Below, piece by piece: positions 18,824-46,145 of a stretch of DNA of 46,145 nucleotides. The notes under the pieces were generated by a model. That model was not told the DNA's origin. It made no database searches and was given only the letters and a program-made list of their open reading frames with translations. Within the stretch, counting starts at the first letter, position 1. Each line of letters starts with the position of its first letter. The translations under genes and the position numbers were made by a program. This DNA is from a virus, in the IMG/VR virus record IMGVR_UViG_3300037087_000773; one strand, given 5' to 3'.

Positions 18824-19351
18824 ATGAATAATCCAATTATGAAACCACTTAAAAAATTCGAACAGTTTGTGAATGAAGATGTATTGAAAGAAGCCCCAGC
18901 TTCTGTTCAAATGAAATATAATAATTATACTGAACTCGAACAAAAAGCTGTAGCTAAAAGAATTCTTTCAAAAGACAATTCGTTTTCTCCGTATGAAGCT
19001 GAACAATGGGCAAAAAATTATGATTTTTTAAAACAAGAATACGGTGAAGATTACGATTCCGTGGCAGATGAAATAATAAAGGATAGAAACAAGGAAAGAG
19101 AAGAAAAAATGAAAAATCCTATCTTATTAAAGGTTGTTGATGGTATCAACTCTGGTAAATTAAAAATTCTAAGGGGTGGTGAAAAAATGTATGGAAATAT
19201 AAAATTATCCATTACCGAATTAGTTTGGGCTCGTAACTTTGAAGATGGTTTCGACATCGATGTGTATGATGGTAAATTTGGTAGTCATGTTGGTTCAATC
19301 TCTTTGACGGCATCCACCGATTGGAAACCAAAAATAACAGAAGCTTTTTAA
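18824..19351 (+). CDS. small protein with N-terminal KKFEQFVNE leader (T4 capsid-targeting-sequence-like)
   Basis: MNNPIMKPLKKFEQFVNEDV... A second Met at 18839 would place the leader at residue 1. V-N-E fits the (I/L/V)-x-E pattern. Confidence 0.5.
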   Translation: MNNPIMKPLKKFEQFVNEDVLKEAPASVQMKYNNYTELEQKAVAKRILSKDNSFSPYEAEQWAKNYDFLKQEYGEDYDSVADEIIKDRNKEREEKMKNPILLKVVDGINSGKLKILRGGEKMYGNIKLSITELVWARNFEDGFDIDVYDGKFGSHVGSISLTASTDWKPKITEAF

Positions 19352-19353
19352 TT

Positions 19354-19653
19354 ATGAAATCACTTAAAAAATTCGAACAGTTTATAAATGAGATGAAAAC
19401 CAATCTATATTATGCACATATTGATGAGTTATACAAAGAAATAGAAAAAGATGAATATCTTCTATATGAATATCAGTCCTATGTTAGAGTAAATGATTTT
19501 GATGGTTTAAAAACATTCGTTGATAAAAATTTCGGATATTCTGAACAACAGTTTGAATACCTAAAAATGAAATTCGAGAAAGATGTAATCGAATACAAAA
19601 AGGATGATGAATCTGAAACAAAATCATTTAAACAAGAACACAATTTAGATTAA
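19354..19653 (+). CDS. small protein with N-terminal KKFEQFINE leader
   Basis: The ATG at 19354 lies 2 nt after the upstream stop: MKSLKKFEQFINEMKTN... The ORF track's start at 19321 is a TTG and is rejected. The body is unrelated to that of the upstream gene. Confidence 0.5.
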   Translation: MKSLKKFEQFINEMKTNLYYAHIDELYKEIEKDEYLLYEYQSYVRVNDFDGLKTFVDKNFGYSEQQFEYLKMKFEKDVIEYKKDDESETKSFKQEHNLD

Positions 19654-19830
19654 ATGATAACACAATTCGAAAAATATATTCTTGAGGATAATCAATTTTT
19701 GAATTCCATAAAAATTGTTTATGAAGATGATTTAAAATCAAATTCAATAATAACAATAAGGGCATTTCATGAGAAAGAAGAAGTAGGTTCAGTAATATTA
19801 GAAGAATGTATGGGGTTAACCAACTGCTAA
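19654..19830 (+). pseudogene. N-terminal fragment of a GNAT acetyltransferase (58 aa) truncated at the left end of the TnpB element
   Basis: MITQFEKYILEDNQFLNSIKIVYEDDLKSNSIITIRAFHEKEEVGSVILEE resembles GNAT beta2-beta3. It ends at TAA 19828-19830, immediately before the left inverted repeat. Confidence 0.4.
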
Positions 19831-21230: not shown

Positions 21231-21534
21231 GTCTTATTGGTATTTTGAAGATGATTTTTCAGAAGATGAATACAATGAATTATTTCCAGATGACCAATTC
21301 ATGAAAATACAACACTTAGAAATAAAACACAAGAAAAGTGGATTGGCTCGAAAATTAATGTTATTAGCCATTGAGAAATGCAAAGAATTAGGATTCAATA
21401 AAATTTATTTAAATGCCTCACCAATTGGACAAGAGGGATTGGAAATAACTGATTTGGTTTGGTTTTATAAAGGTTTCGGTTTTAAAGAGATACTAAATCA
21501 GGGACATAATGTTCAAATGTTATTGAATGTCTGA
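21229..21534 (+). pseudogene. C-terminal fragment of a GNAT acetyltransferase (frame open from 21229; first ATG at 21301)
   Basis: ...HLEIKHKKSGLARKLMLLAIEKCKELGFNKIYLNASP...FYKGFGFKE contains GNAT motif A (R/Q-x-x-G-x-A, acetyl-CoA binding) and the C-terminal beta strands. The frame is open for 24 codons upstream of the first ATG with no Met, which is consistent with a split gene. Confidence 0.55.
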
Positions 21535-22029
21535 CTTCAATAAAAAAGAAATTACATTTTGTAAAGGGGATTGTAACGATTTGATTATTTCCACTATTTT
21601 ATCATTTTTATTTTCATATTTAAAATCCATGTAAAATAGCGTACCACTTGGTGCATTTAATGGTTCACCAAAAGATTTGGTGAACTCCTTTTTCATATCT
21701 TCCAACTTCTGGTAATCTGTATCTACCTCATTAAAGATATCTTCTAATATCTTTTTTCTTTTCTCATTGGTATATTTTTCTTCATCTAATTCGTCTAATA
21801 AATCCAATCCCATTGTTTGTGCTGCTATTTTCATAGCGATTGGAAGAAGTATACCATCGAAAGAAGATGTAACACCAGATGGTGTAGAATCATCATTCTC
21901 TATTTTTTCTTCGATAGATTCAGCATATTCTGATAACCATTTCTTTTTCTCTTTATCTTGAATATTTAAAGAATTGATAATTGGTGCCCATTTTTTATAA
22001 AGGGATTCCTTATCTGGAGATTCGAACAT
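21520..22029 (-). CDS. hypothetical acidic protein (169 aa), last gene of the minus-strand accessory operon
   Basis: Intact ORF convergent with the GNAT fragment. No motif recognised. Confidence 0.45.
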   Translation of the reverse strand: MFESPDKESLYKKWAPIINSLNIQDKEKKKWLSEYAESIEEKIENDDSTPSGVTSSFDGILLPIAMKIAAQTMGLDLLDELDEEKYTNEKRKKILEDIFNEVDTDYQKLEDMKKEFTKSFGEPLNAPSGTLFYMDFKYENKNDKIVEIIKSLQSPLQNVISFLLKSDIQ

Positions 22030-32544: not shown

Positions 32545-34653
32545 ATGTCAAAGGAATTAGATAAATATCATCAGAATGAAATTATAAAGTCAACAATCGA
32601 AAAAGAATTAGGAACAGATGGTTTGGCGGTTGGTGATATATTTATAAATCCATCATCTTCAACTATTGCTGTAAAAATCACCAGTATCACATTCAAAGAT
32701 AATAAATATCAAAATCAAGATCCGGCTTATAAAGTAATAATCGGTTATAAAGAAACCGCCAATTATGAATTGACCGATTGGGAAGAAGAAAAACATGAAG
32801 ATTTCTATAACTTTAATTATTTTCATGTTAAAAATTCAATAAGAGTTAAATGTGGTGAAGATATTTCCCAATACTTAGATAAGGCCAAAAAGGTTATGTC
32901 TGGTGAACTCAGTATTGAAACATTAAATGATGATAATACTGATAATAGTCTTAACAGTGAAACATCCATTATTTCAAAAGATTCCAAAACTAATCTCACA
33001 ACGATTCAAAATAGTCTCGAAGAAAAAAAGAAAAATGCTGAATTAATTCAGGCCTTTGTTTCGATTGAAATGGAAAAAAAGAAAAGAGAACTTGAACAGG
33101 TGAGACAAAAGTTAAATGGAGTGATTGAGGTTTTCAAGAAGAAAATAAGTAAAATAATGAGAGTTATCACTACCATTGAATTATATCTTGGTATTGATGA
33201 AGAATTATTTCAAATTCAAGAGGGGGAATTGGCTCCGAAAGAAACTCCAATATCATTCCGTCAGGCTGTTCTTTATATGGACGAAGAAATTGGTCATTGG
33301 AAAAATGGTGGATTGGATTTTACCAACATTGATTGGTTTGATCAATGGCTTGTGAAAGATGAAAATTTTAAGAAATTGTTACCTGAAGAAAAAGGGTTGG
33401 TAGTTTTTAGACCAAGAAGATATGATAAGGATTATGGTAGTGATCCTCACTATAATGCTTCCATGAATCAGGAAAACAAATACAGAACCTATCTTCTTAT
33501 CAGAAACGGAGAATGTCTTTACAGGGTTTATACTGAAAATATTGTAATTCTTCCAAGATTATTTCCTAAACGAGATGAACTACAAAAACTAATGGAAGAA
33601 ATTCAGAAAGAAAACCTGAGATCATGGGATGAAGAAAAAAAGAAGGATAATATTGATGATCTTGTTCATCAATATAAAAAAAGAGCCATACTTTTACAGG
33701 GTCTTGTTGACAGGACTGATGTGTTTCACCCATTACCAGTTGATAAAATCAACATCTTTGATATGTCAAATCTGGAAGGTAAAGTAAATTTCATTTATGA
33801 CGATGAAGCAACATTACCATCTGGTAGATTATCTTTCTGGGATTGGCACAAAGAAATAAACAGTAAAATTGGAAAAGGTAGTAGGGTTTTGATTACTGGA
33901 TTTGATGGGAAAAATGATGAGGTGAAAGATAGAATTTATTATTATACCACCAATTATGTAAGTCCTCCTTCAGTTGGTATTTATGAAGTTGAGGAATATC
34001 TACATAAAGGCACCAAATCTATGAAAAGATCCGACTTTGAAAATCTCAAAGTGGAATGGGATAAAAGAGGAATCAAATATGAAATAACTAATGTCCGTGA
34101 AAAAGTATATCACATAAATTACCAAGAGAGTTCTTTTCCACATAAAGAAAAGCCGGGTTATGTTCCAATTTATGAAGATGAAGTTACGGTAAGGAGCACC
34201 TACATTCATTTAACTATCCTTTATAATCCCGGTGATACGGTTTATGGTCCTTGGGGGACATATGATCCTCATGACCGTAAAAAAAGGATTCGTTTGAGAA
34301 TATATCCAACGGATGATTTCGTTCTGAATTATGACCAAATAAGTCTTGAGGATATCAATTTTTATCTTACGAGTAGAGTTGATAGACCGAATTATTTAAA
34401 AATGTTACCACTTCTTGATGATGTCAAAAACTGGCGTATCGAAGAATTAGAAAATGAAAAGAATTTCGCGAAAATGGTCTACGCTCAAGTGTACCAGAAA
34501 TTGAAGAAACAAACTGAAGAATATATTTATCAGAAGATTTTAGAAGCTATTGATTGGTGGAAATTCAAGAATATGTGGAAAAGACCAATTGATAAAGATG
34601 ATACCAAAGCATTAAGAATGATTACAAACAGAATACTAAATAAGAAAAATTAA
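32545..34653 (+). CDS. hypothetical large protein (702 aa)
   Basis: Long intact ORF after a 60-nt gap. It has a central coiled-coil (EEKKKNAELIQAFVSIEMEKKKRELEQVRQKL). No domain recognised. Confidence 0.5.
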   Translation: MSKELDKYHQNEIIKSTIEKELGTDGLAVGDIFINPSSSTIAVKITSITFKDNKYQNQDPAYKVIIGYKETANYELTDWEEEKHEDFYNFNYFHVKNSIRVKCGEDISQYLDKAKKVMSGELSIETLNDDNTDNSLNSETSIISKDSKTNLTTIQNSLEEKKKNAELIQAFVSIEMEKKKRELEQVRQKLNGVIEVFKKKISKIMRVITTIELYLGIDEELFQIQEGELAPKETPISFRQAVLYMDEEIGHWKNGGLDFTNIDWFDQWLVKDENFKKLLPEEKGLVVFRPRRYDKDYGSDPHYNASMNQENKYRTYLLIRNGECLYRVYTENIVILPRLFPKRDELQKLMEEIQKENLRSWDEEKKKDNIDDLVHQYKKRAILLQGLVDRTDVFHPLPVDKINIFDMSNLEGKVNFIYDDEATLPSGRLSFWDWHKEINSKIGKGSRVLITGFDGKNDEVKDRIYYYTTNYVSPPSVGIYEVEEYLHKGTKSMKRSDFENLKVEWDKRGIKYEITNVREKVYHINYQESSFPHKEKPGYVPIYEDEVTVRSTYIHLTILYNPGDTVYGPWGTYDPHDRKKRIRLRIYPTDDFVLNYDQISLEDINFYLTSRVDRPNYLKMLPLLDDVKNWRIEELENEKNFAKMVYAQVYQKLKKQTEEYIYQKILEAIDWWKFKNMWKRPIDKDDTKALRMITNRILNKKN

Positions 34654-34671
34654 TTTTAAAAATTTAAAGCC

Positions 34672-35247
34672 ATGACAGACAATCACAAAAAGATTATAAA
34701 AGAATTCTTTGATAATAGCTCGTGCTACGGGAATCCTCATTGGGTTTGGGTGTATACTCAAATAAAAGGATTCGGTAAAATAAAAGTCCTTTATAATAAG
34801 GGTGAATTCGGCCAAATCAAAATTGGTGGAGTTGGTAAGATGCTTATTGAAGAACTTGCCGACTATAAACTTGATATACTGACATCTTGGATGCAAGATC
34901 AGCTTGATTTTCTAAATGAGATCAAGCAAATGCCTTTTATCAAGGAACTCAAAAATTTAAATGAAATTAATTTCGATTTATATGATACCAAAACCACTCG
35001 TTTGCGTATTACTTTTACTCACTTTCCATTGGAAAAAAGTGCTAAGAAGCAAACAGGGTTATTAAAAGCGACACTAAAATCTCAGGGTTATGGTGTTGGT
35101 CAAGAGTTTGGTGATATTTATATGGTCAAATACCATACGAATTATAGTCAGATGAATTTGTTCAAACGAATTCTATATAATTTCAAACTTGGTATTGCAC
35201 ACGATATTGTACGACCTAATTCATGTTTCAGTCCAATTCTTTCTTGA
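34672..35247 (+). CDS. hypothetical protein (191 aa)
   Basis: Intact ORF whose 3' end overlaps the convergent minus-strand gene by 27 nt. Confidence 0.45.
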   Translation: MTDNHKKIIKEFFDNSSCYGNPHWVWVYTQIKGFGKIKVLYNKGEFGQIKIGGVGKMLIEELADYKLDILTSWMQDQLDFLNEIKQMPFIKELKNLNEINFDLYDTKTTRLRITFTHFPLEKSAKKQTGLLKATLKSQGYGVGQEFGDIYMVKYHTNYSQMNLFKRILYNFKLGIAHDIVRPNSCFSPILS

Positions 35248-35901
35248 AGATGAATATAAATTATAATCCTGTTTCCTATTTAGATGATAAAATAGTTGTT
35301 CCGATTTGATATTAATACTATCCGCTATTAATTTAAAAGTACTGTCAATACAATGTAATTCTTTGGCGTTTTCGATTAAATAGCAATAATCAAATATATT
35401 GTTTGTCAAACTCCTATTTGGTCTTATTATCGGAATGTTTTTATTTCTTACTTCAGTAATATCGTTGATTACATAATTTCTATCAGCATCGTCATGAATT
35501 AATACATACTCGTTCTCAATAACATTGAATCTTTTAAACAATTCCATTTCCTTATAGTTGTCTCGTTCAATATAAAAATCAGTCCATCTTTTCGTGAAGT
35601 CCAAATTTGACCCCATATAAAACGATCTGTCGAATTTATAATTGAATACATCCAATTTATGAAAACCAACTCTCAAAACATTGCTTTTGTTTGCTATGGA
35701 TTGTTCTACATCATTATCATTAAATATTTTCAAATATTCAATGTTTTTTAGATCTCTGAACATGAAACTGACGGATTCGAAATTATGATGCTTAACAAAA
35801 AGAAAAATTTTGTCATGTGATTTTGAATAATTTCTAACAATGGCATTACAAATTATATGATCACCCAATCCCAAATGATGATAAATGTACAATTCATTCA
35901 T
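35221..35901 (-). CDS. hypothetical protein (226 aa), possibly a glycosyltransferase
   Basis: It is the last gene of the minus-strand glycosyltransferase operon. The N-terminal LYIYHHLGLGDHIICNAI is faintly like GT9/GT-B N-termini, but this is not convincing. Confidence 0.45.
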   Translation of the reverse strand: MNELYIYHHLGLGDHIICNAIVRNYSKSHDKIFLFVKHHNFESVSFMFRDLKNIEYLKIFNDNDVEQSIANKSNVLRVGFHKLDVFNYKFDRSFYMGSNLDFTKRWTDFYIERDNYKEMELFKRFNVIENEYVLIHDDADRNYVINDITEVRNKNIPIIRPNRSLTNNIFDYCYLIENAKELHCIDSTFKLIADSINIKSEQLFYHLNRKQDYNLYSSSRKNWTET

Positions 35902-36599
35902 TAATATCCTAATTCTTTTCTATTTATCCAAAGAGTATATTGTTCTTTCCTATTATCATTTTCATCATAAATTTCCCCAATAAAACGATGATCTTCCATT
36001 TTTGTTGGAAATGGTTTTGAATATGGATACCTATCAAAACAGGAATCATGACAAATGACATCTCCCTCTTTTACAAACCTCTCGTATACGAATTGATTTA
36101 AAAATGGGGTATCAATGTATTTATTGTATAAAACAGTATTTATTGGATTTGTATTACTAACATACAAAATAATATCCTTTTTTAAATTTAAATCCTCAGA
36201 TACGACCAATCCGAATAAACCGGCATACATTTGAACTCCATGATGTGGGTGGTCTCTCATTATATGTAATGTTTTACCAGATTCGATCCATTCATCAACC
36301 GCGTGTTTTTCCCTCATGGATAATCTACTGTCACCATCTCTACTGATAAATCTTTCCACATCTTCTTTCGGTGTGAATCTCCAAAGAACTCCGGGGCCGG
36401 GAAAATTTGTCATATCAAATAATTCACAATTATCAAATTGCCTATATTTTTCTATTATATCACTTGGTACGGAATTATTGTAATAAACATAAACTTTCCA
36501 ATCTGGATAAATAATCTTAGCCAATTCCAAGTTTTTCAAGACCCCAATAGTATACATTGGTTGATTTCCATAAATACTAAAGCTAATTACTTTCTTCAT
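35901..36599 (-). CDS. hypothetical protein (232 aa), possibly a glycosyltransferase
   Basis: N-terminus MKKVISFSIYGNQPMYTIGVLKNLELAKIIYPDWKVYVYYN resembles the start of small GT-A enzymes. The ATG was verified at 36597-36599, preceded on its own strand by the AGGAAT repeat. Confidence 0.45.
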   Translation of the reverse strand: MKKVISFSIYGNQPMYTIGVLKNLELAKIIYPDWKVYVYYNNSVPSDIIEKYRQFDNCELFDMTNFPGPGVLWRFTPKEDVERFISRDGDSRLSMREKHAVDEWIESGKTLHIMRDHPHHGVQMYAGLFGLVVSEDLNLKKDIILYVSNTNPINTVLYNKYIDTPFLNQFVYERFVKEGDVICHDSCFDRYPYSKPFPTKMEDHRFIGEIYDENDNRKEQYTLWINRKELGY

Positions 36600-36620
36600 T
36601 CCTATTCCTATTCCTATTCT
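36598..36620 (-). repeat. (AGGAAT)x3 hexamer tandem repeat abutting a start codon
   Basis: The plus strand reads ATTCCTATTCCTATTCCTATTCT. The minus strand reads AGAATAGGAATAGGAATAGGAATG, with the final ATG being the start of 35901..36599. These AGGA elements are the only SD-like sequences seen upstream of any gene in the window. Confidence 0.6.
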
Positions 36621-37322
36621 TTATTTTAAATATTCTACCGATGGTGGTATATTTTTTGTCCTATAAATGTTTTTATTATTTTCCAGAATCATATATCCAT
36701 AATTATTATCATCTGGATTGGTTCTTTTTTCAACGACAGAACGATTCACGGAATTTATTTCCATTACTCTTACACCTAATAATGTTTTTCTTTTCAACCC
36801 AAATTGCATACATCTTTCTGTCATATCACTATCACACCAATAATATTGAAATTGTGAATCATACATTCCAATTTTTCTAAAAACATCTTTTTTATATATC
36901 CCGAAATTCATACAACCATCAAATAATATCTGTGAATTTTTAAACACACTGTTTTTATCCACCGCGAATTGTTCCAGTGAACCTCTTGTCCAAGGAAACA
37001 CATAATAATCAGAATCATCTATTTCTTGTATGATATCATCCCAATCATTACACAAAAGAACATCATCATTCCATTGAGCTATTAATTCATAAGAGGCATT
37101 CTTTATACCCAAATTCATATAATGCGGATAACTGCTTCTACCACCTACCTCAATTAATTTGATTCTGGGGTGATTTAAGAGCTTCAGGTACTCGATTGTA
37201 CCATCAGTGGAGCCACCGTCCACTAAAATCAGCTCGACCTTTTCTGAGCTCCCTACGGTGTTATTTATGATATGACTTAATAACACCAATCTATTTAATG
37301 TTCCAGTAACTACACTTATCAT
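36621..37322 (-). CDS. glycosyltransferase family 2 (GT-A fold)
   Basis: MISVVTGTLNRLVLLSHIIN...VELILVDGGSTDGTIEYL...QWNDDVLL. It overlaps the upstream gene by ATGA. Confidence 0.65.
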   Translation of the reverse strand: MISVVTGTLNRLVLLSHIINNTVGSSEKVELILVDGGSTDGTIEYLKLLNHPRIKLIEVGGRSSYPHYMNLGIKNASYELIAQWNDDVLLCNDWDDIIQEIDDSDYYVFPWTRGSLEQFAVDKNSVFKNSQILFDGCMNFGIYKKDVFRKIGMYDSQFQYYWCDSDMTERCMQFGLKRKTLLGVRVMEINSVNRSVVEKRTNPDDNNYGYMILENNKNIYRTKNIPPSVEYLK

Positions 37323-37972
37323 AATATACTTTTTATTTTTCCTTTATCAATTTCTTTCTCAACCATCCTATCTCTTTGACTCATAGATTTAATCATATTA
37401 TCATTTTTCTCAGGAACTTGTTTTATTTCGTGAAGATCTCTATGAAGAATCGTAATGGGAACTCTCTCCCATATTCCAAGTTCATTGGCTATCATTAACA
37501 AATATCCATCATAGGATGGACATCCCGTTATTCTTCCTACTGTTTCATAATATTTTCTTGATATATAAGGAAAATAATAATCACCAATATCACCAACTCT
37601 ACCCTCACACGGTTGATGTCTTAATATCCAAGGTTTTTGAGGATCATAATTTTCTAAATATTTATCCCAATTTTTGGTTTTCATTATTGTATCATCGTTT
37701 AATGGTTGAAGCCAATCACCAGTTGCTAATTTGGCCATATCATTTATAAAATTATGAATTTCACCATAACCCAGACCCCTTTCTGAAATAATAATTTTCA
37801 AATTTTGCCAATAAGGTAAATCGTTTAATTTTGAAATTATTTCATCACCAAAATCCAATTTTATTAAAACTTCGATGTCATTAGAACCAGTAGAATTTTC
37901 GAATATAGATTCTATACAAGTTACTAATAAATTATATCCATTTATACTTGGAATTAAAATACTTACTTTCAT
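37319..37972 (-). CDS. GT-A-fold glycosyltransferase-like protein (217 aa)
   Basis: VSILIPSINGYNLLVTCIESIFENS...DIEVLIKLD...WLQPLNDD has the GT2-like N-terminal beta-alpha-beta arrangement and a DxD-like element. Confidence 0.5.
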   Translation of the reverse strand: MKVSILIPSINGYNLLVTCIESIFENSTGSNDIEVLIKLDFGDEIISKLNDLPYWQNLKIIISERGLGYGEIHNFINDMAKLATGDWLQPLNDDTIMKTKNWDKYLENYDPQKPWILRHQPCEGRVGDIGDYYFPYISRKYYETVGRITGCPSYDGYLLMIANELGIWERVPITILHRDLHEIKQVPEKNDNMIKSMSQRDRMVEKEIDKGKIKSIL

Positions 37973-37976
37973 ATAT

Positions 37977-40376
37977 TTATTTTCTTTTTATAAAACTTCC
38001 TCTATAAGAAAATGGTCTCCCATATACTTCGAAATGTTCATTGAGAAATGATATATTATCTCCACTTGTAACTGAACTATCAAAGACCATATTTCCATTA
38101 AATGAAATTACGAATGGAACATTATTTTTCATATATTCTTCACATATTTCTTTCGGTGATTTTGTTGCTGGTTGTTCAACTGGTAATATATCTATTTTCT
38201 TCTTTGGTATATCAGGTAATTGAACTGTCTCTTTAAATCTGGAATTTAATATTGTATAATTCATATCCTTCGTTGTAATATCGGATCTGGTATCTAATAA
38301 TTTCACAAAAAATGGTAAAAACACATAAGCATAAATTTTTGGAAACAATGATTCAATATAAACATCGATTGGTTTTTCTTCTTTTTTACAAGCATCAATA
38401 ATTTTTTGAAACAATCCGTTTTTATTATTCAATATCATAGCAAAGCATCCAGTTGATCTCCAGACTCTATAAATCATAAATCTTACCTGAACAATCGGTG
38501 TTAATAAGGGTGGTATGTCAGAACCCAGATACATTATTTCCCAATCTTCAGGAACAGTATTCATATAATATTCGAATCTACTCTCGAAATCATCACAAAA
38601 AATAACATCATCCTCGAATATTGCTATTTTATTATATTCTTTTTCTATGGCATCTTGTAAAATACTTATATGTGACCTAAGACATCCGATTTCACATTTT
38701 CTCTGGTCATTACCTTCTACCTTTAATTTTTGACCATCAATCCCATTTATAATTTGATATGAACCCAATTTAATTCTACTAAATTGATCAACTATATGAT
38801 TCAGTTTATCTTTTCTTTTAGGAAGATTTATACAATACACATTATCTACAAATCTATCCAAAGCATTATTTTTGATCCTAAGTCTTGGTTTAAATTTTTG
38901 ATATTCAGGACTTTTATAATCTAAGAAATTCACAATGTTTTTGAAGTATTTATTAACCAATTCATACGAAAAAGGTTTTTTATTTTCACTTATATCGGAA
39001 ACAGTATTTATTGTCTTGACGAAAAATGGAGAGAAAATATATATGTTAAAATCTCCCAACATTTTACAATAATATTCGTCAATGGGTTCACTTTCCGATT
39101 CGGTCAGTTCAATAATTTTTTGAAATAATCCACTTTTATTATTTAATATCATGGCAAAAGCCCCATAAACTCCGTTCACTTTATTTATAAAAGGTTTCAT
39201 TTCAAGACCCTGATTAAAATGTGCACCACCAAGATACATTATATCCCAATCACTGGGTACGGCCGCGGCGTAGTATTCAAATCTTTTTTCAAAATCATCA
39301 CAAAATATAATATCATCTTCAAATATAGCTATTCTATCATATCCGTTTTTTAAAGACTCTTTTATAACACCAACATGACTTCTTAAACAAGCTACTTGTG
39401 ATGATCTTACATCTTCTCCCATCTTTTTTCCATCAATGGCATCAAATCTTTTAAATGTTATATTGAATTTATCAAATTCTTTCGTAATATGTTCTAATCT
39501 GTCTTTCCTTCTTTCTAAATTTATAACCCAAGAACAATCAACAAATTTATTTAAAATTGATTTTCCATTCCCATTATTTGGTTTTGAAACGACTTTCGGT
39601 AAAGAAGAATTTGGAACAAATTTATATGGTTCTTTTAGTCTGTTTTTTTCTATTTCTTGATAATCATAATTCTTTTCAGATAAATGATAATGATAAACCT
39701 TAATATCTTTTGATGGATTTAATACCTCATATCCATTTTTTTCGAATTCGTGAGCGAGAACATTATCACAACTTGGAGTCCCCATTTTAAAATCACAATT
39801 TAAATCATTTATTTCACCTAAAAAAGCCCAAGCACTCTGACTGAATTCAACATCAAAATGTTCCGATTTAAATGGGACTAAACTCACTATATTCCAAGTT
39901 GAAAGACAATATACTGTACCAAATTTAATGTTATTCAAAATCAATTCAATATTATCACCATCAAAATAACAATCAGAATTCAATAATATGTTCAAATCGC
40001 TATTTTTTGTATTAAAATTAATAATATTAAACATATCCCTGAAAGTTGGTTGTAAATTGATCATATTGATTTTTACAATTTTTTTATCCAACTTTTCAGA
40101 ATATTCATCAGAACACACTAAAAATATTTTGTCTATCTTCTTATTTGAAATCAATTTATTCAAACAATATTGTATTTCCTTATTTCTTTTTTCTGTTTTA
40201 GATTCGAAATAATTAAAATACACATTCACTTTTGATTTTTCATGAGTATGTTTTTCTGGTAATATGATTCTATTTTCTTCTTTTAAATAATATCCATCCC
40301 CATGACTATCATTAAAAAATATTGAACCATTATCAAATAGATAATAAGATGTATCTTTATTGGTTGATTTATTCAT
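37977..40376 (-). CDS. multidomain glycosyltransferase with two tandem GT25 (LgtB/Lic2A-type) domains (799 aa)
   Basis: Repeat 1: CSWVINLERRKDRLEHITKEF...FKRFDAIDG...ACLRSHVGVIKESLKNGYDRIAIFEDDIIFCDDFEKRF...DWDIMYLGG. Repeat 2: VYCINLPKRKDKLNHIVDQF...INGIDG...GCLRSHISILQDAIEKEYNKIAIFEDDVIFCDDFESRF...DWEIMYLG. Both align to Neisseria LgtB (ISL...ERR.HI...F.FFDA...ACFMSH..LW...IAVFEDDV). The N-terminal roughly 270 aa are unassigned. Confidence 0.75.
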   Translation of the reverse strand: MNKSTNKDTSYYLFDNGSIFFNDSHGDGYYLKEENRIILPEKHTHEKSKVNVYFNYFESKTEKRNKEIQYCLNKLISNKKIDKIFLVCSDEYSEKLDKKIVKINMINLQPTFRDMFNIINFNTKNSDLNILLNSDCYFDGDNIELILNNIKFGTVYCLSTWNIVSLVPFKSEHFDVEFSQSAWAFLGEINDLNCDFKMGTPSCDNVLAHEFEKNGYEVLNPSKDIKVYHYHLSEKNYDYQEIEKNRLKEPYKFVPNSSLPKVVSKPNNGNGKSILNKFVDCSWVINLERRKDRLEHITKEFDKFNITFKRFDAIDGKKMGEDVRSSQVACLRSHVGVIKESLKNGYDRIAIFEDDIIFCDDFEKRFEYYAAAVPSDWDIMYLGGAHFNQGLEMKPFINKVNGVYGAFAMILNNKSGLFQKIIELTESESEPIDEYYCKMLGDFNIYIFSPFFVKTINTVSDISENKKPFSYELVNKYFKNIVNFLDYKSPEYQKFKPRLRIKNNALDRFVDNVYCINLPKRKDKLNHIVDQFSRIKLGSYQIINGIDGQKLKVEGNDQRKCEIGCLRSHISILQDAIEKEYNKIAIFEDDVIFCDDFESRFEYYMNTVPEDWEIMYLGSDIPPLLTPIVQVRFMIYRVWRSTGCFAMILNNKNGLFQKIIDACKKEEKPIDVYIESLFPKIYAYVFLPFFVKLLDTRSDITTKDMNYTILNSRFKETVQLPDIPKKKIDILPVEQPATKSPKEICEEYMKNNVPFVISFNGNMVFDSSVTSGDNISFLNEHFEVYGRPFSYRGSFIKRK

Positions 40377-41214
40377 AATAATCTTTCAAATAATTTTCAA
40401 ACATATAATCTTCAGCGATTAGATATTTCTTAGCTAACTCGAAATTTTCCTTAACACTCTCCAATTTATCTTTATACATATTCAAACTAATACTGTTTAA
40501 AATATATTTCATTTCGTGTATATCATTGAAACATATCATTCCATTTGGATTAAAAAATTTCCATATAGACGGACATCCCCAATAAATAGGAATCGTTCCT
40601 GTCATAAAGCAATCGATTAATTTCTCAGTAAAATAATAATCTTGTTTGGTGTTTTCAATAACCATAGAAAAGGCGTAATCTTTCAGTCCATATATTTTGT
40701 TTGGTAAAGGAAAATATCCCCTACCAAAAGTATCAATATTATTTTTAAACAATGTTACTATTTGATGTCTTAGTGCCTGTCCTGTTGTATATTTCTTATC
40801 AGAAAAGATAGCCGACAATAATTTGGTTTTATCATAAATCATTTGGTCTTTTGGTAATATCCAGCACCCAGCTGTTGGTGAAAATTTAAAAATAGGACTC
40901 TGATCAAGATGTTCTTTATTATTAGTGAGAATGAAATCAAAATTTCTATAATTATCAGATTTTGAAATCCACTCATGCTGTGGTTTGGTTATAGCTGGAG
41001 ATTCTAACATCCAACCCACTCTAACTTTTGGCCAAGTTAACTCTCCTTTTTCATTTCTGAGAAAAATATGATCCAATGAAGTATCAGTATAAACCGCCAA
41101 TTTATCATCTCTGGTTATTGGTGTTCTATCCCATGTAATATATTTTGATTCTTGATTATCCGTACTATATTTAGCATGTACGAAATGAAGATCAACTAAC
41201 TTAATGTTGTGCAT
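40369..41214 (-). CDS. alpha-1,3/4-fucosyltransferase, GT10 (Helicobacter FutA-like)
   Basis: YAFSMVIENTKQDYYFTEKLIDCFMTGTIPIYWGCPSIWKFFNPNGMICFNDI matches H. pylori FutA YKFSLCFENSQGYGYVTEKIIDAYFSHTIPIYWGSPSVAKDFNPKSFVNVHDF almost motif-for-motif. Confidence 0.8.
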   Translation of the reverse strand: MHNIKLVDLHFVHAKYSTDNQESKYITWDRTPITRDDKLAVYTDTSLDHIFLRNEKGELTWPKVRVGWMLESPAITKPQHEWISKSDNYRNFDFILTNNKEHLDQSPIFKFSPTAGCWILPKDQMIYDKTKLLSAIFSDKKYTTGQALRHQIVTLFKNNIDTFGRGYFPLPNKIYGLKDYAFSMVIENTKQDYYFTEKLIDCFMTGTIPIYWGCPSIWKFFNPNGMICFNDIHEMKYILNSISLNMYKDKLESVKENFELAKKYLIAEDYMFENYLKDYYE

Positions 41215-41303
41215 AAAAATCTTGTTTGTTTTTATATATTGTGGATAGTGATGTCAAAACCAATCACAATAATTAATATATAGTTAAAAAGAAACAAAAA
41301 GTT

Positions 41304-42275
41304 ATGTCTAAAATAAAAAATTTCAAAGAATTTTTGAAAGAAGAAGTATATGTTCAACCACAACCGGCTGTTCAACAGACACAACCACCTGTTCAAAATT
41401 CTGTTCAACCAACTCAATCTCAACCAGAAGCTAAGAAATTAGATCCAACAAAAGTGAACAAGAAGATTGATTTTACCTACTTAAACAAAGATGCTAATGT
41501 AGATAAAATAAGACAAATTTGTGAAACAGCTAAAAGTCCTGAAAATTTGAATTATATTTTCGGGGTTGTTGTTGGACCAGAATTTGTTTCGGAAACAAAA
41601 AAATATTTGGAAGATAGTGGAATAAAGACAATAACTGTCATTTCTTATCCTGATGGAGATGATAAGAATTCAATAAAAATGAAAGCATTACAAAAAGCTA
41701 TTTCAGAAGGTGCCGAAGAAGTTAATGTTGTTATGGATTATAAAAAATTAACAGATGCATTAATCGAGACTGATAAGGAAAAACAAGAAAAGATGATACA
41801 AACTATCCAAACAGACATAAGATCTTTGGTGGAGTATTGTAAAGAAAGAAGTACAATAATAAAAATAATCATTGAAATGGAAGCTTTGTCTGATACTAAA
41901 ACCATTTCAAAGGCCGTTGAAATTTGTAAAAAAACAAATGTTGATTTCATAACAACATCAACTGGTATGTATACAAGAAATACTAATTATACTTTCGAAA
42001 AGAAAATGAAAGATGTAACTGAAGTAATTGTACCTATGATTGAAGGAATGGATGATATAAATATAAATGTTTGTGGTGGAGTAAATGGAAGTGACAAATT
42101 AATGTTGTGTTTAAGTAATAATAAAATTCAAAGAATTTCAAGTTCCATGACGCCACAAACCTTACTAAATAAACAATCTCCACCACCACAAACTCAAATA
42201 CAATCACCTGATTCACCAGCTCAAACAACACAATCTCAGCCTATACAACCACAATCTCAACCACCTCAACAATAA
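41304..42275 (+). CDS. protein with N-terminal KNFKEFLKEE leader and P/Q-rich low-complexity termini (323 aa)
   Basis: MSKIKNFKEFLKEEVYVQPQPAVQQTQPPVQNSVQPTQSQPE... The C-terminus is QSPPPQTQIQSPDSPAQTTQSQPIQPQSQPPQQ. Confidence 0.5.
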   Translation: MSKIKNFKEFLKEEVYVQPQPAVQQTQPPVQNSVQPTQSQPEAKKLDPTKVNKKIDFTYLNKDANVDKIRQICETAKSPENLNYIFGVVVGPEFVSETKKYLEDSGIKTITVISYPDGDDKNSIKMKALQKAISEGAEEVNVVMDYKKLTDALIETDKEKQEKMIQTIQTDIRSLVEYCKERSTIIKIIIEMEALSDTKTISKAVEICKKTNVDFITTSTGMYTRNTNYTFEKKMKDVTEVIVPMIEGMDDININVCGGVNGSDKLMLCLSNNKIQRISSSMTPQTLLNKQSPPPQTQIQSPDSPAQTTQSQPIQPQSQPPQQ

Positions 42276-42286
42276 AGCACAAAAAA

Positions 42287-42314
42287 ACCCAGAAAAATCT
42301 GGGTTTTTGTTTTT
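42287..42314. terminator. bidirectional intrinsic-terminator-like hairpin
   Basis: ACCCAGA-AAAA-TCTGGGT (7-bp stem, 42287-42304), preceded by an A-run (42281-42287) and followed by TTTTGTTTTT. It sits between the convergent genes 41304..42275(+) and 42313..42783(-). Confidence 0.6.
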
Positions 42315-42783
42315 ACATAGTTGGTAAAAGATATCCAAATTCCTGATATATATCTTTACAAAGTTGAATTAATTTTTCTCTGTGCTCTTTTTCAGTATCA
42401 CTCAATTTACCTGCGATTGTATCCATATTTTTATAACAATCTTGTAATTCCTCGTAAGTATTCTCGAACCTGCAATGGCTCATGTTCGTTTCATTAATAA
42501 CACTTTCACTGACCTCAATTGATGGGAATTCTTTTTTTACGGCTCTTTTAACAGAATTTTTCAATGAGTCTAAATCACCATCATACCAAGGTGGTACACT
42601 TTTATATTGTTCAACTCTTGCTAATGCGTTTCTTCCTTGACCCAAATCATTTATTGTGAAATGGTCTTTCTTTACACCTTTCACCTCTTTTACTTTTGGA
42701 TGTTCAGCTGGAAAAATACATTTTCCCCTGTTCCTATATTTAGGAATCCTTTTTTCATTTACAAATTCATTAAATTTTTTCAT
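42313..42783 (-). CDS. small protein with N-terminal MKKFNEFVNE leader (156 aa)
   Basis: MKKFNEFVNEKRIPK... Its C-terminal region (EKEHREKLIQLCKDIYQEF) is paralogous to the next gene (EREYYYKLVDLCREFL). Confidence 0.5.
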   Translation of the reverse strand: MKKFNEFVNEKRIPKYRNRGKCIFPAEHPKVKEVKGVKKDHFTINDLGQGRNALARVEQYKSVPPWYDGDLDSLKNSVKRAVKKEFPSIEVSESVINETNMSHCRFENTYEELQDCYKNMDTIAGKLSDTEKEHREKLIQLCKDIYQEFGYLLPTM

Positions 42784-42791
42784 TTTATCAA

Positions 42792-43061
42792 TTATAATTT
42801 TAAAGATGGATGTGATCTTGTAGCTAAAAACTCTCTACAAAGATCCACTAACTTATAATAATATTCTCGTTCTCTTTTTGATAAATCAACACCAGTTCCA
42901 CTCAAATTTTTGAATGATTTTTTCGAATCATCAATTCCATTTGACATGATATCAAAACAATCCGATAATTTATTATAAGCTTCTTCGAAACCAACATTCA
43001 ATCCGTATTTATCACCACTCAGATTGAGTTCTTCATTAATAAATTCATTAAACTTTTTCAT
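42792..43061 (-). CDS. small protein with N-terminal MKKFNEFINE leader (89 aa)
   Basis: MKKFNEFINEELNLSG... It is a paralog of 42313..42783. Confidence 0.5.
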   Translation of the reverse strand: MKKFNEFINEELNLSGDKYGLNVGFEEAYNKLSDCFDIMSNGIDDSKKSFKNLSGTGVDLSKREREYYYKLVDLCREFLATRSHPSLKL

Positions 43062-43389
43062 TTAATCTTTTCTTTAATTGTTCAATCTGTTCATTAAGTT
43101 TAGTAAAATTAAAAGGACCAGCAACTAAGATTGTTTTAATACTTTCCAGAGTTACAATTTCTTCTTTCATTTTTTCTTTCTGAACAAAATTGTATAATTT
43201 ATCAGTGAGTTCATCAACACCAGTTAAGGATATCTCAGCATCTTCAATTTGGGACATTTTTTCACCACTTGGTTCAATATTGGCTTTTACTGTTTCCTTA
43301 ATCAATGAATAAATTTCCTGTTTTGTTTTATCAAAGAACTTTACTGGTTCTTGAACAGATTCATTTTGTCTATCTGTGAATTTTTCCAT
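43048..43389 (-). CDS. small coiled-coil protein with a degenerate leader (MEKFTDRQNE)
   Basis: K-F-x4-N-E spacing matches the KFNEFINE leader. It overlaps the next gene by 14 nt. Confidence 0.45.
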   Translation of the reverse strand: MEKFTDRQNESVQEPVKFFDKTKQEIYSLIKETVKANIEPSGEKMSQIEDAEISLTGVDELTDKLYNFVQKEKMKEEIVTLESIKTILVAGPFNFTKLNEQIEQLKKRLNEKV

Positions 43390-43408
43390 TAGATTTTTTA
43401 GTTATTTT

Positions 43409-43702
43409 TTATGCTTTCGGACCAGTTTCAGAACTTTTTTCTTCTGTCTTTTTCTTTTCCTTTTTCTCTTTCTTTATAACACAATTTTCAACCATGTGGT
43501 ATATTTTCTGAAGTCTTTTTTTACCACATTTCTTTATGTTTTCTTCAATAAACTTTATCTGTCCGGCTGAATCACCTTCCAAATGATGTTCTAAAACAGC
43601 AAATCCACCAACTTCTGTTCTTTTGGTTGATTTTTGCTTTGGCTGTAAATTCTGATATTCAGTGAATTTCAATAAATTTTGTAATTTACTATCTTTTGCC
43701 AT
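43409..43702 (-). CDS. hypothetical basic protein (97 aa)
   Basis: The ATG was verified at 43700-43702. The tail is Lys-rich (KKEKKEKKKTEEK). It has a partial leader-like LLKFTEYQNL at residues 10-19. Confidence 0.4.
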   Translation of the reverse strand: MAKDSKLQNLLKFTEYQNLQPKQKSTKRTEVGGFAVLEHHLEGDSAGQIKFIEENIKKCGKKRLQKIYHMVENCVIKKEKKEKKKTEEKSSETGPKA

Positions 43703-43753
43703 TGTATTCGTGATTATTTTTTATGTATATATTAATATTAAAAATTCATTTTA

Positions 43754-44341
43754 TTAATTGTATGAGGCTAAATCATTAGCCATTTCTTCTGCACAATCAA
43801 AATCAGAGGGTGAATCATATTCATCCCATCTATAAGAATCATTATCCATTAATCTTTTGGATAAATAATTCCTCAATTTTTTATCTGATTGTACTTGATC
43901 CAGTGCCATATCCATCAATTCACTATGATTATAGGGTTCGCCATTTCTATCATCCAATCCTGAGGTCGCTATACTTTGACATATTTCCTTGTATTCTTTT
44001 TCGGATATCATTTTTTCTTTTGATAACTTGGGTGTTTTTACTGGTTTCGTTTTTTCCTTATATTCATTCTTCAATTTTGCTGGCATAATGTATTCATAAT
44101 GTCTTGGATTATCTAATACGATTTCTCTTACCCCATTTCCATCACATTGTTTTAAAGTTGGTGTTTTTCCCGGTGTAATTACCACAAAATCATATTCTTC
44201 TTTCCAAGATGGATGTTTCAATGTTACAACCTCATCCTTTGTATACTCATAATCTTTAATTATATCGTCATTTACTTTATAATCATATTCAAATTTCTTT
44301 AATTCGAATATAAAACTTTGATAATCTTTTATATTTTTCAT
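43754..44341 (-). CDS. hypothetical protein (195 aa)
   Basis: Intact ORF with LKKFEYDY near the N-terminus. No domain recognised. Confidence 0.45.
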   Translation of the reverse strand: MKNIKDYQSFIFELKKFEYDYKVNDDIIKDYEYTKDEVVTLKHPSWKEEYDFVVITPGKTPTLKQCDGNGVREIVLDNPRHYEYIMPAKLKNEYKEKTKPVKTPKLSKEKMISEKEYKEICQSIATSGLDDRNGEPYNHSELMDMALDQVQSDKKLRNYLSKRLMDNDSYRWDEYDSPSDFDCAEEMANDLASYN

Positions 44342-44353
44342 GTAAATATATAT

Positions 44354-45109
44354 TTATTTTTTAAATTCATTTCCTAATTTCAAAGCTTCTTCCTCGGTCA
44401 TGTTTACCATATCATTCTTTGTTAGTTTATCAGGTCTTTTACTCCATTCCACCTTAGCTGCTATATTATGGGCATTATCATACTTCATCCCTTTCTCTTT
44501 CATTAATGTTCTTTCAACATACTCATGTATGAGGACAAATGGGATTTCCTTATCTTTCAATCCATCTTCAATCCAAATTTCATTATTAGGAATCCATTTA
44601 TAAACATAGCCGTGCCCGCCCTCCATAAAATCCGTCTTATATTTATCTCTAACCATTTCTGCATCAACCAGCCAAACCGTCAAATCATCATCTTTTATTT
44701 TACAATATTCTTTCTTATAAATTTTTTCATGACCTTTTTCATCCGTCTTTTCTGGATTCTTATCTCTTTCTTCTCTATATTTCTTATCCATTTTTTCGGC
44801 TTTATGATAAGCATCCCACTTTTCCATCCCATTATCAATCAACTTTAACTTATACAATTCGATATGAATTAGAATATTTCTTTCATCTGTTTTAACATCA
44901 TCCTCAATCCAGATCTCATTTTTTGGAATAAGATTAGGAAAATATGGATATGATGACGATAATCCGAATTCTTCATCACCTTTCGTTAAATCTCTCACTT
45001 TCTCTCCATTTACTGTATAAACTTTATATTTACCGTATTGTTCCACAAGTTCTTTTCCAACATCCTCATTTTTCTTTTCATTAATAAATTCAACAAAGGT
45101 CTTGATCAT
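44354..45109 (-). CDS. protein with N-terminal MIKTFVEFINE leader and an internal tandem-duplicated domain
   Basis: The ORF-track start at 45148 is a TTG. The first ATG is at 45109 and gives MIKTFVEFINEKKNEDV. Two repeats are present: NLIPKNEIWIEDDVKTDERNILIHIELY...GMEKWDAYHKA and KWIPNNEIWIEDGLKDKEIPFVLIHEYV...GMKYDNAHNIA. Confidence 0.5.
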   Translation of the reverse strand: MIKTFVEFINEKKNEDVGKELVEQYGKYKVYTVNGEKVRDLTKGDEEFGLSSSYPYFPNLIPKNEIWIEDDVKTDERNILIHIELYKLKLIDNGMEKWDAYHKAEKMDKKYREERDKNPEKTDEKGHEKIYKKEYCKIKDDDLTVWLVDAEMVRDKYKTDFMEGGHGYVYKWIPNNEIWIEDGLKDKEIPFVLIHEYVERTLMKEKGMKYDNAHNIAAKVEWSKRPDKLTKNDMVNMTEEEALKLGNEFKK

Positions 45110-45204
45110 GTAGTAATTTTTTCTTTTATATATTAATTTTTTGACCAAAAGAAAACCCAGTGGCGAGCTATGACCGAAGTCACAACAGGTCCTAAGCTGT
45201 TTCT

Positions 45205-45478
45205 TTATTTTACGATAAGTAATTCAAATTCTTTCCAGTTTTGAATACCATGTGAATCATTAGAAATTAATATTTTTCTATCTCCATTCTTTTTCCAATC
45301 ATTATTTGTATATACACAACTATCAGGATTTGATATAAATTTCAATTCCATCAGATGTTAATCTGGCATATAATTTAGTACCAGCTTTTTGTATCACTAC
45401 TAAATTATCATAAACATTAACATCATCAAATTTGTTTGAATATTCTTCGTTTAATTTAAATTCATTTAAATGTTTCAT
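45205..45478 (-). pseudogene. frameshifted leader-family gene (MKHLNEFKLNEE...)
   Basis: Read directly from the sequence. Segment 1 (45326..45478) reads MKHLNEFKLNEEYSNKFDDVNVYDNLVVIQKAGTKLYARLTSDGIEIYIKS*. Segment 2 is in the +1 frame (45205..45333) and reads SNPDSCVYTNNDWKKNGDRKILISNDSHGIQNWKEFELLIVK*. The frame break is near ATCAAATCC (about 45323-45333). Confidence 0.35.
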
Positions 45479-45488
45479 CGTAAAAATA

Positions 45489-46142
45489 TTATTTTTTCAT
45501 CTCGGATAAACATAACAAAATAGCTTGCTTTGTTCCGTCAATAACATATTCATATAATCCTCTTACTCCTTGATTTTTAGTAAAAAAACCATCTTTAACT
45601 AAAAATTTATCTATATCTTCCTTATGTTTCAAATAGAAATCGAAAATATCTTCATCTTGAATCAATCCCTCTAAGGTAACAGTCTTTTCTGTTTTCTTGG
45701 GTGGGGTGGAGTTCTCATTAACCCAATCAGTAATAAAATCATTAGTGTCAACATTCTGTGTTTGTGATGATTTTTTAACTAACTCCATTAAATCATTTTT
45801 CAATACTTGAAATTCTATGGCCTCGTCAATTTGATTGATATTAAATGAATATAAATATGTCTGAATCATGTTATATAGCATATCCATATTATAGTAAGCT
45901 TCATCTACTGATTTCTCAATGCCATCTCTATCTGTAATTTTATCCTTTGTTATGATATAATACTTATCACCATTAAATGTGAAATCAACAATATATCCAT
46001 CTTTTGTTTCTGTTATAGAATTGAAATATTCATTTTGACTAACTTCGTTGTTATAAGTAAAATCTTTAATTTCTCTGGCCAAATTATGAAGATCATTCAT
46101 AGAATGATAAGTTGATTTTTCTAAAAATTTTTTATAAGTCAA
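45489..46142 (-). CDS. hypothetical protein with a leader-like N-terminus (MTYKKFLEK), 217 aa
   Basis: Intact ORF starting 3 nt from the window end. K-K-F-L-E-K resembles the leader with an L-x-E element. Confidence 0.45.
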   Translation of the reverse strand: MTYKKFLEKSTYHSMNDLHNLAREIKDFTYNNEVSQNEYFNSITETKDGYIVDFTFNGDKYYIITKDKITDRDGIEKSVDEAYYNMDMLYNMIQTYLYSFNINQIDEAIEFQVLKNDLMELVKKSSQTQNVDTNDFITDWVNENSTPPKKTEKTVTLEGLIQDEDIFDFYLKHKEDIDKFLVKDGFFTKNQGVRGLYEYVIDGTKQAILLCLSEMKK

Positions 46143-46145
46143 TAT

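Follow-up and report, generated by a model that had tools for sequence, protein, structure and literature searches.

A probable T4-type capsid targeting sequence on dozens of mostly unrelated proteins of a huge phage

Introduction

Phage T4 places its internal proteins in the prohead by means of the capsid targeting sequence (CTS), a short N-terminal peptide borne by unrelated bodies (Mullaney & Black; PMC9026906). For packaging, the first ten residues of IPIII are enough, the prohead protease gp21 cleaves after L/I-x-E, and amber-suppressor work assigns CTS residues 4 and 7 to targeting and residues 8 (I/L) and 10 (E) to processing, Asp at position 10 stopping cleavage but not targeting (PMC9026906). 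Here we analyse a leader of this kind in IMG/VR virus record IMGVR_UViG_3300037087_000773, a stretch of 46,145 nucleotides (the window), in which the initial annotation had noticed a block of small genes at 41.3-46.1 kb that begin with a common decapeptide and had read it as a T4-like targeting sequence. The T4 features on which that reading leaned hold: IPII and IPIII start with MKTYQEFIAE in the T4 record, and cleavage after (L/I)-x-E is how gp21 is described in PMC9026906. Other N-termini in the T4 record are MKTFKEF (IPI), MAKINELLRE (gp24), MELITELFDE (Alt) and MLKEQLIAE (gp22). We find that the leader of the window is probably a T4-type CTS, a helix that docks a protein on the prohead core and that the prohead protease then removes.

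Related head systems differ in how signal, scaffold and protease are organised. In T4, gp21 and the scaffold protein gp22 are encoded by separate genes, and gp22 is rich in I-A-E and L-A-E sites (LIAE, KIAE, KIAE, WLAE) that form no regular array. The giant phages phiKZ, SPN3US and 201phi2-1 package about 50 head proteins, and a gp21-related protease (gp175/gp245; MEROPS S80) processes after x-x-E; most of their propeptides exceed 100 residues, and the cut falls at S/A-x-E (PMC5694885, PMC9026906). Rak2-like giants (Cronobacter GAP32, Serratia BF) have a T4-type cluster of portal, protease, scaffold and capsid genes, with protease and scaffold separate and without a 14-residue repeat array. 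Short peptides that send unrelated cargo into an HK97-fold shell are also known as encapsulin cargo-loading peptides and, comparably, from P22 scaffold-fusion cargo; encapsulin signals are C-terminal and bind the shell, P22 signals are whole scaffold domains, and neither is removed by a protease.

Results

The window belongs to a huge phage of about 736 kb. Positions 34354-46145 are 99.9-100% identical to ENA scaffold WOOD18-1 scaffold_11 (222 kb), and a database protein found on contigs of up to 736,551 bp is identical to the 251-amino-acid (aa) product of 44354-45109. An exact search of IMG/VR with 53 nt gave no match. A blastn search of the 41-46 kb region against the GenBank phage collection gave a single match, 149 bp at 78% identity, to LR756501, a 735-kb genome entered as "uncultured phage" by Al-Shayeb et al. 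2020, who place the largest genomes in the Mahaphage clade and predict Bacteroidetes hosts. At the protein level synteny between the window and LR756501 is extensive, and we therefore took LR756501 whole as a relative (1024 open reading frames (ORFs) called). For the phage of the window itself our leader survey covers about 78 kb, namely the window and two stretches beyond it, L001, from the ENA scaffold next to the window end, and L023, which holds the head genes.

The leader is a peptide motif restricted to protein N-termini. A strict pattern, [FY].[EQ][FY][VIL].E, is matched 7 times when the whole window is translated in six frames, and 6 of these matches lie 3-6 residues after a genuine ORF start Met. 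When residues 2-20 of each N-terminus are shuffled, 0.01 matches are expected (at most 1 in 2000 shuffles) against the 6 observed, and none of 248 20-residue stretches starting at an internal Met matches. The initial annotation had argued that amino-acid composition does not explain the motif; these composition-preserving shuffles agree and rule out a composition artefact. Selection acts at the protein level, since the choice among synonymous codons at the conserved F, E and N is that of the genome as a whole (TTT:TTC 24:13, GAA:GAG 25:9, AAT:AAC 15:6); the constraint is thus on the peptide and not on DNA or RNA, and a nucleotide-level signal is ruled out. A Sec, Tat or lipoprotein signal peptide was also rejected, as the leaders lack a hydrophobic core of 7-15 residues, K-K-F-N-E-F-I-N-E being alternately polar and aromatic, and acidic.

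The same restriction is seen in the relative. LR756501 holds 37 occurrences of the strict motif, 34 of them N-terminal or in scaffold repeats: 21 begin at ORF residues 4-15, 10 lie in an 807-aa protease-scaffold protein and 3 in a 207-aa protein bearing the same 14-aa repeats, which leaves 3 elsewhere. N-terminal occurrences number 20 against 0.34 expected from shuffles, and broader patterns find a leader-like N-terminus in 45-78 ORFs against about 12 expected from the internal frequency. Among 62 leaders selected by regular expression, the final Glu is residue 10-13 in 49. Outside the expression itself, Asn stands at position 9, before the final Glu, in 31 of the 62, the two residues ahead of the first aromatic one are each Lys in 24, and Ile recurs at residue 2.

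The conserved positions of MKKFNEFINE, namely F4, F7, I/V8 and E10, are those that determine targeting and processing in T4. As a positive control, the strict pattern applied to 50 kb of T4 in six frames found only the N-termini of IPII, IPIII and UvsW.1, to which a broad pattern adds gp24 and Alt. The UvsW.1 match is MLLEFKQFLYE, which starts a small frame at the end of the annotated uvsW (AF158101, 114222, plus strand; L022).

Behind the leader the proteins are diverse. The bodies had been called otherwise unrelated, and by BLASTP this is so for most of them, the exception in the block being the genes 42783 and 43061 (genes are named by the coordinate of their start), which have a C-terminal domain in common; an all-against-all comparison of 62 leader-protein bodies gave only a few small paralogue groups. 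Pfam and PHROGs return almost no matches to the bodies. Among 55 leader proteins Pfam recognises a few enzymes only (DeoC, an S-adenosylmethionine (SAM) methyltransferase and a radical SAM protein) and gives no match to core families of replication or transcription. Few leader proteins of the window have homologues in LR756501, and cargo content differs greatly between related genomes. Where orthologues exist the leaders survive on diverged bodies, as in the DeoC pair, the 4618 pair and the family of the 251-aa protein, with retention seen at 37% body identity, and relatives of that family with another composition retain the aromatic spacing (MEFREWLLTE, MLTFLEYVQ). The near-identical leader DNA on different adjacent bodies looks like leader-mediated shuffling or strong purifying selection.

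A T4-like head module lies on the scaffold that carries the window. The initial annotation had proposed a search for capsid and protease genes, and both are present, in a set of three adjacent head genes on WOOD18-1 scaffold_11 about 114 kb from the leader block: a portal gene (Portal_T4, E = 1.5e-64), P0146, and a gene for a Gp23-type major capsid protein (MCP; Gp23, E = 1.4e-27). P0146, between the two, encodes an 818-aa fusion of a gp21-like protease and a scaffold, and is the orthologue (54% identity) of the 807-aa protein of LR756501; it too is found on contigs up to 736,551 bp, and its family numbers 5260 homologues. In LR756501, phmmer with T4 head proteins likewise found an adjacent gp20-like portal (1.4e-29), the 807-aa protein (a weak gp21 match) and a gp23-like capsid protein, with Portal_T4 and Gp23 confirmed by Pfam.

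The N-terminal domain of P0146 matches T4 gp21 by BLASTP (2e-8), the catalytic His85 and Ser140 of gp21 aligning to H76 and S131 of P0146, and neither of these varies among 38 homologues. Precomputed PF03420 matches exist for many close homologues, and the best PDB match of the AlphaFold model in Foldseek is T4 gp21 (5jbl; E = 2.6e-5, template modelling score 0.60 normalised to target), the model being of moderate confidence, with a predicted local distance difference test score (pLDDT) of 60-83 in the protease domain. A tblastn search with this domain reached 451 phage records, mainly T4-like cyanophages, coliphages, Rak2-like giants, Lak phages and phage PAU; the matches in T4-like cyanophages and Rak2-like phages are annotated as prohead core protease. 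I-N-E sites occur near the N-terminus of the protease (...KINE) and in the capsid protein (...LHINE|NVAY, where T4 has ...LTE|AEIGG).

Past the protease domain the model of P0146 predicts a long helix, residues about 239-480, that contains ten tandem 14-residue units (YQKYIAE, FIEYVAE, YSEYIAE, YADYIAE, YAEYVAE, YADYISE, YTQYIAE, YGEYVAE, YSEMLAE, YQKYEAE). The LR756501 protein has thirteen such units, and the family consensus is I-x-Y-S-E-Y-I-A-E-N-L-D-K-x, with the repeats invariant across 38 homologues. The heptad Y-x-E-Y-I-A-E of the scaffold repeat is the heptad of the leader, and it is nearly the core of the T4 CTS, YQEFIAE. Searched against PDB sequences, a profile built from complete proteins of the protease-scaffold family hit nothing but a designed coiled coil, which fits a two-heptad helical repeat and is silent on the protease.

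With starts and N-termini of the window genes re-derived, the leader is found on five of the seven genes listed in the 41.3-46.1 kb block, 41304, 42783, 43061, 45109 and, as a variant, 45478; gene 43389 has none and that of 46142 is degenerate. A terminal [VIL]-x-E, which had been stated for every leader, is likewise present in five of the seven; it fails for 43389, which has no [VIL]-x-E, and for 46142, which ends in K. The first gene (41304..42275, plus strand, 323 aa) has its leader, MSKIKNFKEFLKE, at 41304-41342, the strict motif standing 6 residues after Met, followed by a DeoC-like aldolase body set between a P/Q-rich linker and a P/Q-rich tail. The body matches Pfam DeoC (4.7e-9) and deoxyribose-phosphate aldolases in the PDB (down to 1e-17), and the LR756501 orthologue, LR_337628, retains the leader (MVKNFDKFVRE). 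The aldolase keeps the equivalent of the Schiff-base Lys (IIKIIIE); at the place of the second active-site Lys, which we take to be K201 in the numbering of the Escherichia coli deoxyribose-phosphate aldolase, it has Thr.

The next two genes lie on the minus strand and both carry the strict motif: 42783 (42313..42783, 156 aa) starts with MKKFNEFVNE at 42754-42783, and 43061 (42792..43061, 89 aa) with MKKFNEFINE at 43032-43061. Their leader DNA is identical at 27 of 30 nt, and the stretch common to their bodies by BLASTP is 54 C-terminal residues only; the C-terminal domain of 42783 matches phrog_8760, a PHROG of unassigned function. We rejected the MEKFTDRQNE start of 43389 (minus strand) as a leader, as it lacks the second aromatic residue as well as [VIL]-x-E, and its LR756501 orthologue starts MDKFTQKIGK. 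A looser leader, absent from the earlier list, is carried by 44341 (43754..44341, minus strand, 195 aa): MKNIKDYQSFIFE has two aromatic residues, I, x and E correctly spaced, and the protein has no family match in Pfam or PHROGs.

The gene at 45109 (44354..45109, minus strand, 251 aa) begins with MIKTFVEFINE at 45077-45109, a strict motif. Its body is an internally duplicated domain, and among its 163 homologues the closer ones retain M-x-x-F-x-E-[FYW] leaders. In the AlphaFold model (pLDDT 92.7) the leader forms a helix of its own at the N-terminus (residues 5-12), modelled with lower confidence. The model has no fold match in the PDB, and tblastn of the protein against cultured phages gave only partial matches, all to uncultured records. 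Gene 45478 (45323..45478, minus strand, 51 aa) has the variant MKHLNEFKLNE, with F-x-L-N-E spacing and one extra residue between F and L; this type recurs in L001 (MKHIKEFSLNE, MKYIKDFQLNE) and in LR_67735 of LR756501 (MKHVKKFTINE). The doubtful gene 46142 (45489..46142, minus strand) has a TTG start and TYKKFLEK, ending in K and not E. Its orthologue LR_712884 starts MPLTFQKFFEE, so its leader is degenerate at best, and gene callers chose later ATG starts on other contigs. Within this ORF the window differs from L001 by an indel or short tandem difference at 46020-46074, which accounts for gene-caller products of 130, 186 and 203 aa on different contigs.

A further ORF in the block, 97 aa at 43409-43702 (minus strand), has homology reaching upstream to 43737. 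Its first 38 residues (MAKDSKLQNLLKFTEYQNLQP..GGFAVLE) are 79% identical to LR_714575, and its start is the only part of 41-46 kb still alignable as DNA to LR756501 (78%, 149 bp); the remainder is a Lys-rich tail. From its sequence the product may be a basic DNA-associated head protein.

More members of the leader family were found in the window, in the 10 kb past its end and in LR756501. The 10 kb beyond the window contribute four leaders, MKNISSFNEFTNE, MKYLKLFEDFISE, MITKFENFINE and MKHIKEFSLNE. The three copies previously placed at 18.8-19.8 kb are present on the plus strand as 18839, 19354 and 19654. Gene 18839 (18839..19351, 170 aa; leader MKPLKKFEQFVNE) and gene 19354 (19354..19653, 99 aa; leader MKSLKKFEQFINE) have the strict motif, and their leader DNA is identical at 35 of 39 nt, yet their bodies show no BLASTP match to each other; gene 19654 (19654..19830, 58 aa) has the looser MITQFEKYILE. 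For the first of the three, a start at 18839 is favoured over 18824 because TTAATATATA ends 23 nt upstream of 18839. Two minus-strand leader genes were absent from the earlier list. One (3336..3794, 152 aa) carries MKMIKAYNDFIKE, a loose motif 6 residues after Met, and the other, 4618 (4187..4618, 143 aa), is the first gene after a TTAATATATA motif and starts MKKVYEDLIKE, its orthologue LR_295153 (78% identical) starting MKKVYENLTKE.

Two further proteins of the window are related to head components. That encoded at 3804..4187 (minus strand, 127 aa) has three internal 14-residue units (YSNYIKE.., YQEYLAN.., YNDFIVQ..) and matches two LR756501 proteins by BLASTP (E about 2e-7), the protease-scaffold protein in its repeat array and LR_619760, a similar protein with three perfect 14-residue units. 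The protein encoded at 21520..22029 (minus strand, 169 aa) is a paralogue of the MCP N-terminus (propeptide plus N-arm), 30% identical to residues 6-161 of the Gp23-like MCP LR_76415 (BLASTP, E = 1.5e-14); the two have KKW-P-I-I, W-L-S-E-Y-A-E and LLPIAMKIAAQT in common. LR756501 has a second stand-alone MCP N-terminal paralogue, LR_565330.

A promoter-like motif, TTAATATATA or T[TA]ATATATA, lies 17-30 nt 5' of leader-operon start codons, with sites in the window at 4642, 18807, 19909, 24470, 41273, 43726 and 45127; TTAATATATA sits 21 nt 5' of gene 41304 and also 5' of gene 45109. Variants of T[TA]ATATATA precede the portal, protease-scaffold and capsid genes (L023, LR756501), and TTTATATA is 3.5-fold enriched 5' of leader genes in LR756501. 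In sequence the TTAATATATA motif resembles the T4 late promoter TATAAATA.

The window has 27-34% G+C and is rich in ORFans and in glycosyl- and methyltransferases, and an Rfam scan of it gave no match. Directly 3' of the 18.8-19.8 kb leader trio is a TnpB or IS605 OrfB-type gene (19963-21207, plus strand; OrfB_IS605 2e-22, Cas12f1-like TNB domain 1e-22), preceded by TTAATATATA. A NusG-like gene (22770-23309, minus strand; NusG 7.5e-18, KOW) has an LR756501 orthologue of 56% identity. Positions 1-2424 (minus strand) hold an 807-aa ORF like the major vault protein (MVP; MVP_shoulder 6e-26, Vault_3 2e-11, weak Band_7); its orthologue, LR_17179-19608, is 69% identical and far better conserved than the neighbouring genes.

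Discussion

Several lines of evidence, namely the head module, the scaffold repeats, the match to the T4 determinants and the shuffles, support the capsid-targeting interpretation of the leader that the initial annotation proposed, with cleavage and packaging as its predicted consequences. All the computational checks suggested there favoured it. We picture the assembly as follows. A T4-like portal would nucleate a core of the 818-aa protein, with its gp21-type serine protease N-terminal and its roughly ten 14-residue units forming a long helical central part. Each cargo protein would present one heptad, [FY]-x-[EQ]-[FY]-[IVL]-x-E, right after its start Met, and would join the core as a pseudo-repeat of the scaffold, docking through the two aromatic residues. 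Once the Gp23-like shell has closed round the core, the protease would cut after [IVL]-x-E, reducing the scaffold to peptides of roughly 14 residues, removing the leaders and trimming the capsid protein at I-N-E, and the mature cargo would remain in the head and probably be ejected with the DNA. The detached leader helix in the model of the 251-aa protein, the leaders kept on diverged bodies, and a cargo as variable as that of the T4 internal-protein loci are consistent with this mechanism.

Some observations weigh against a T4-type CTS. The residue after the final E varies (E, A, K, N, S), and a few leaders end in D or N, whereas Asp blocks processing in T4. The product of 3336..3794 has a C-terminal transmembrane segment, which is odd for capsid cargo, and the strict pattern also matches T4 UvsW.1, a protein without known packaging. 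On the protease side, Peptidase_S77 scores 23.9 bits on P0146 (residues about 25-175; E = 3.2e-5), below the curated cut-off of 27. Finally, tagged genes run to dozens in the huge phages (17 in about 78 kb here, about 45-70 of the 1024 ORFs of LR756501) against 4-5 in T4.

Since the leader motif equals the scaffold repeat unit, the leader could instead dock transient factors of assembly or size determination, like T4 gp67 and gp68, which would be degraded or expelled at maturation and not delivered to the host. The 3804-4187 protein and LR_619760, which have internal repeats and not an N-terminal tag, and the very small size of many leader proteins (50-100 aa) would suit such a role. We nevertheless judge it unlikely, as diverse, fast-turnover bodies are more like arms-race cargo, of which the T4 internal proteins are an example, than like structural factors, and some of the bodies are enzymes. 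The enrichment over shuffles in the window bears on a different proposal, that the leader is a capsid-independent general tag on phage ORFans, for instance a translation-enhancing AT-rich start, a degron or a chaperone-binding helix. An AT-rich genome with cheap Lys, Asn, Phe and Glu codons, the many tagged genes and a DnaJ-domain gene nearby speak for it. It is improbable, somewhat more so than docking of transient factors, given those shuffles, the genome-typical synonymous codons that leave no room for nucleotide-level constraint, the aromatic spacing kept in relatives of another composition, and the near restriction of internal occurrences to prohead scaffold repeats (3 of 37 elsewhere in LR756501).

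The well-conserved MVP-like ORF raises the possibility that the leader sends cargo to a vault-like particle built from this homologue, the more so as the ORF comes last in a run of minus-strand genes among which are two leader genes and that of the scaffold-repeat protein. We rank vault cargo low, since it is the capsid scaffold, and not MVP, in which the motif is repeated; moreover, the LR756501 MVP gene is unlinked to these leader genes, and eukaryotic vault cargo uses a C-terminal INT domain and not an N-terminal decapeptide. We regard this destination as very unlikely. Chance or paralogy, with recent duplicates still sharing their 5' ends, would explain the near-identity of adjacent leader DNA (18839/19354 and 42783/43061), but leaders occur throughout the 735 kb of LR756501 on bodies without BLASTP similarity and are kept in orthologues at 37% body identity, and of the four explanations considered here we hold this one the least credible.

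Taken as a T4-type CTS, the leader follows its model closely. It is an N-terminal peptide of 10-13 residues on unrelated bodies, of the form M-x-x-[aromatic/hydrophobic]-x-E-[F/L]-[I/L/V]-x-E with determinants at 4, 7, 8 and 10, in a phage that has gp20, gp21 and gp23 homologues and whose cargo genes are hypervariable between relatives. It differs in a cut-site consensus of I-N-E where T4 has I-A-E and in a Met-to-Glu distance that is not fixed but spans 10-13; the phage probably infects a member of the Bacteroidetes, and its genome is larger than that of T4 by a factor of about 4.4. The gene order of portal, protease, scaffold and capsid protein is that of T4, and the serine protease has aligned His and Ser and a predicted common fold, but what T4 encodes as gp21 and gp22 is a single polypeptide here, with CTS-like two-heptad repeats in the scaffold. 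Relative to the phiKZ-type phages, with which P0146 has a weak affinity (Peptidase_S80, 22.9 bits against a cut-off of 23.4, E = 5.4e-5), the leaders are far from the long propeptides, being 10-13 residues long with P3 filled by I, L or V, and the head module matches the T4 families Portal_T4 and Gp23. In the Rak2-like phage GAP32, whose virions are reported to have been analysed by mass spectrometry, the scaffold candidate GAP32_249 starts MSKLDKFLNE, a leader of the same type, so the tag type reaches across the T4-like head superfamily.

The concept of a CTS plus gp21 is classical. A literature search found no paper describing such a system in huge phages, and the dozens of tagged genes, the protease-scaffold fusion and the scaffold of tandem CTS-like units appear to be new. 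A wider reading, which we advance tentatively and rate somewhat short of probable, is that in the Mahaphage clade, the largest known phages, the CTS serves as a general address label, by which 50 or more unrelated proteins per genome are loaded through a decapeptide that copies one unit of a scaffold composed of a protease and 10-13 tandem docking and cleavage units. If so, the set of packaged and ejected proteins of uncultured huge phages could be listed directly from their genomes, and the binding mode of the CTS in general, that of T4 included, would be suggested to be a pseudo-repeat inserted in the scaffold helix bundle. The identity of leader and scaffold repeat unit in any case offers a concrete model of how a CTS is recognised by the prohead core, and the tag might serve to load foreign proteins into large capsids, a use to which the T4 system has already been put. 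For huge phages, which are uncultured and whose genes are mostly ORFans, a cargo tag would assign to dozens of genes in each genome a location and a likely role, be it early host takeover or anti-defence.

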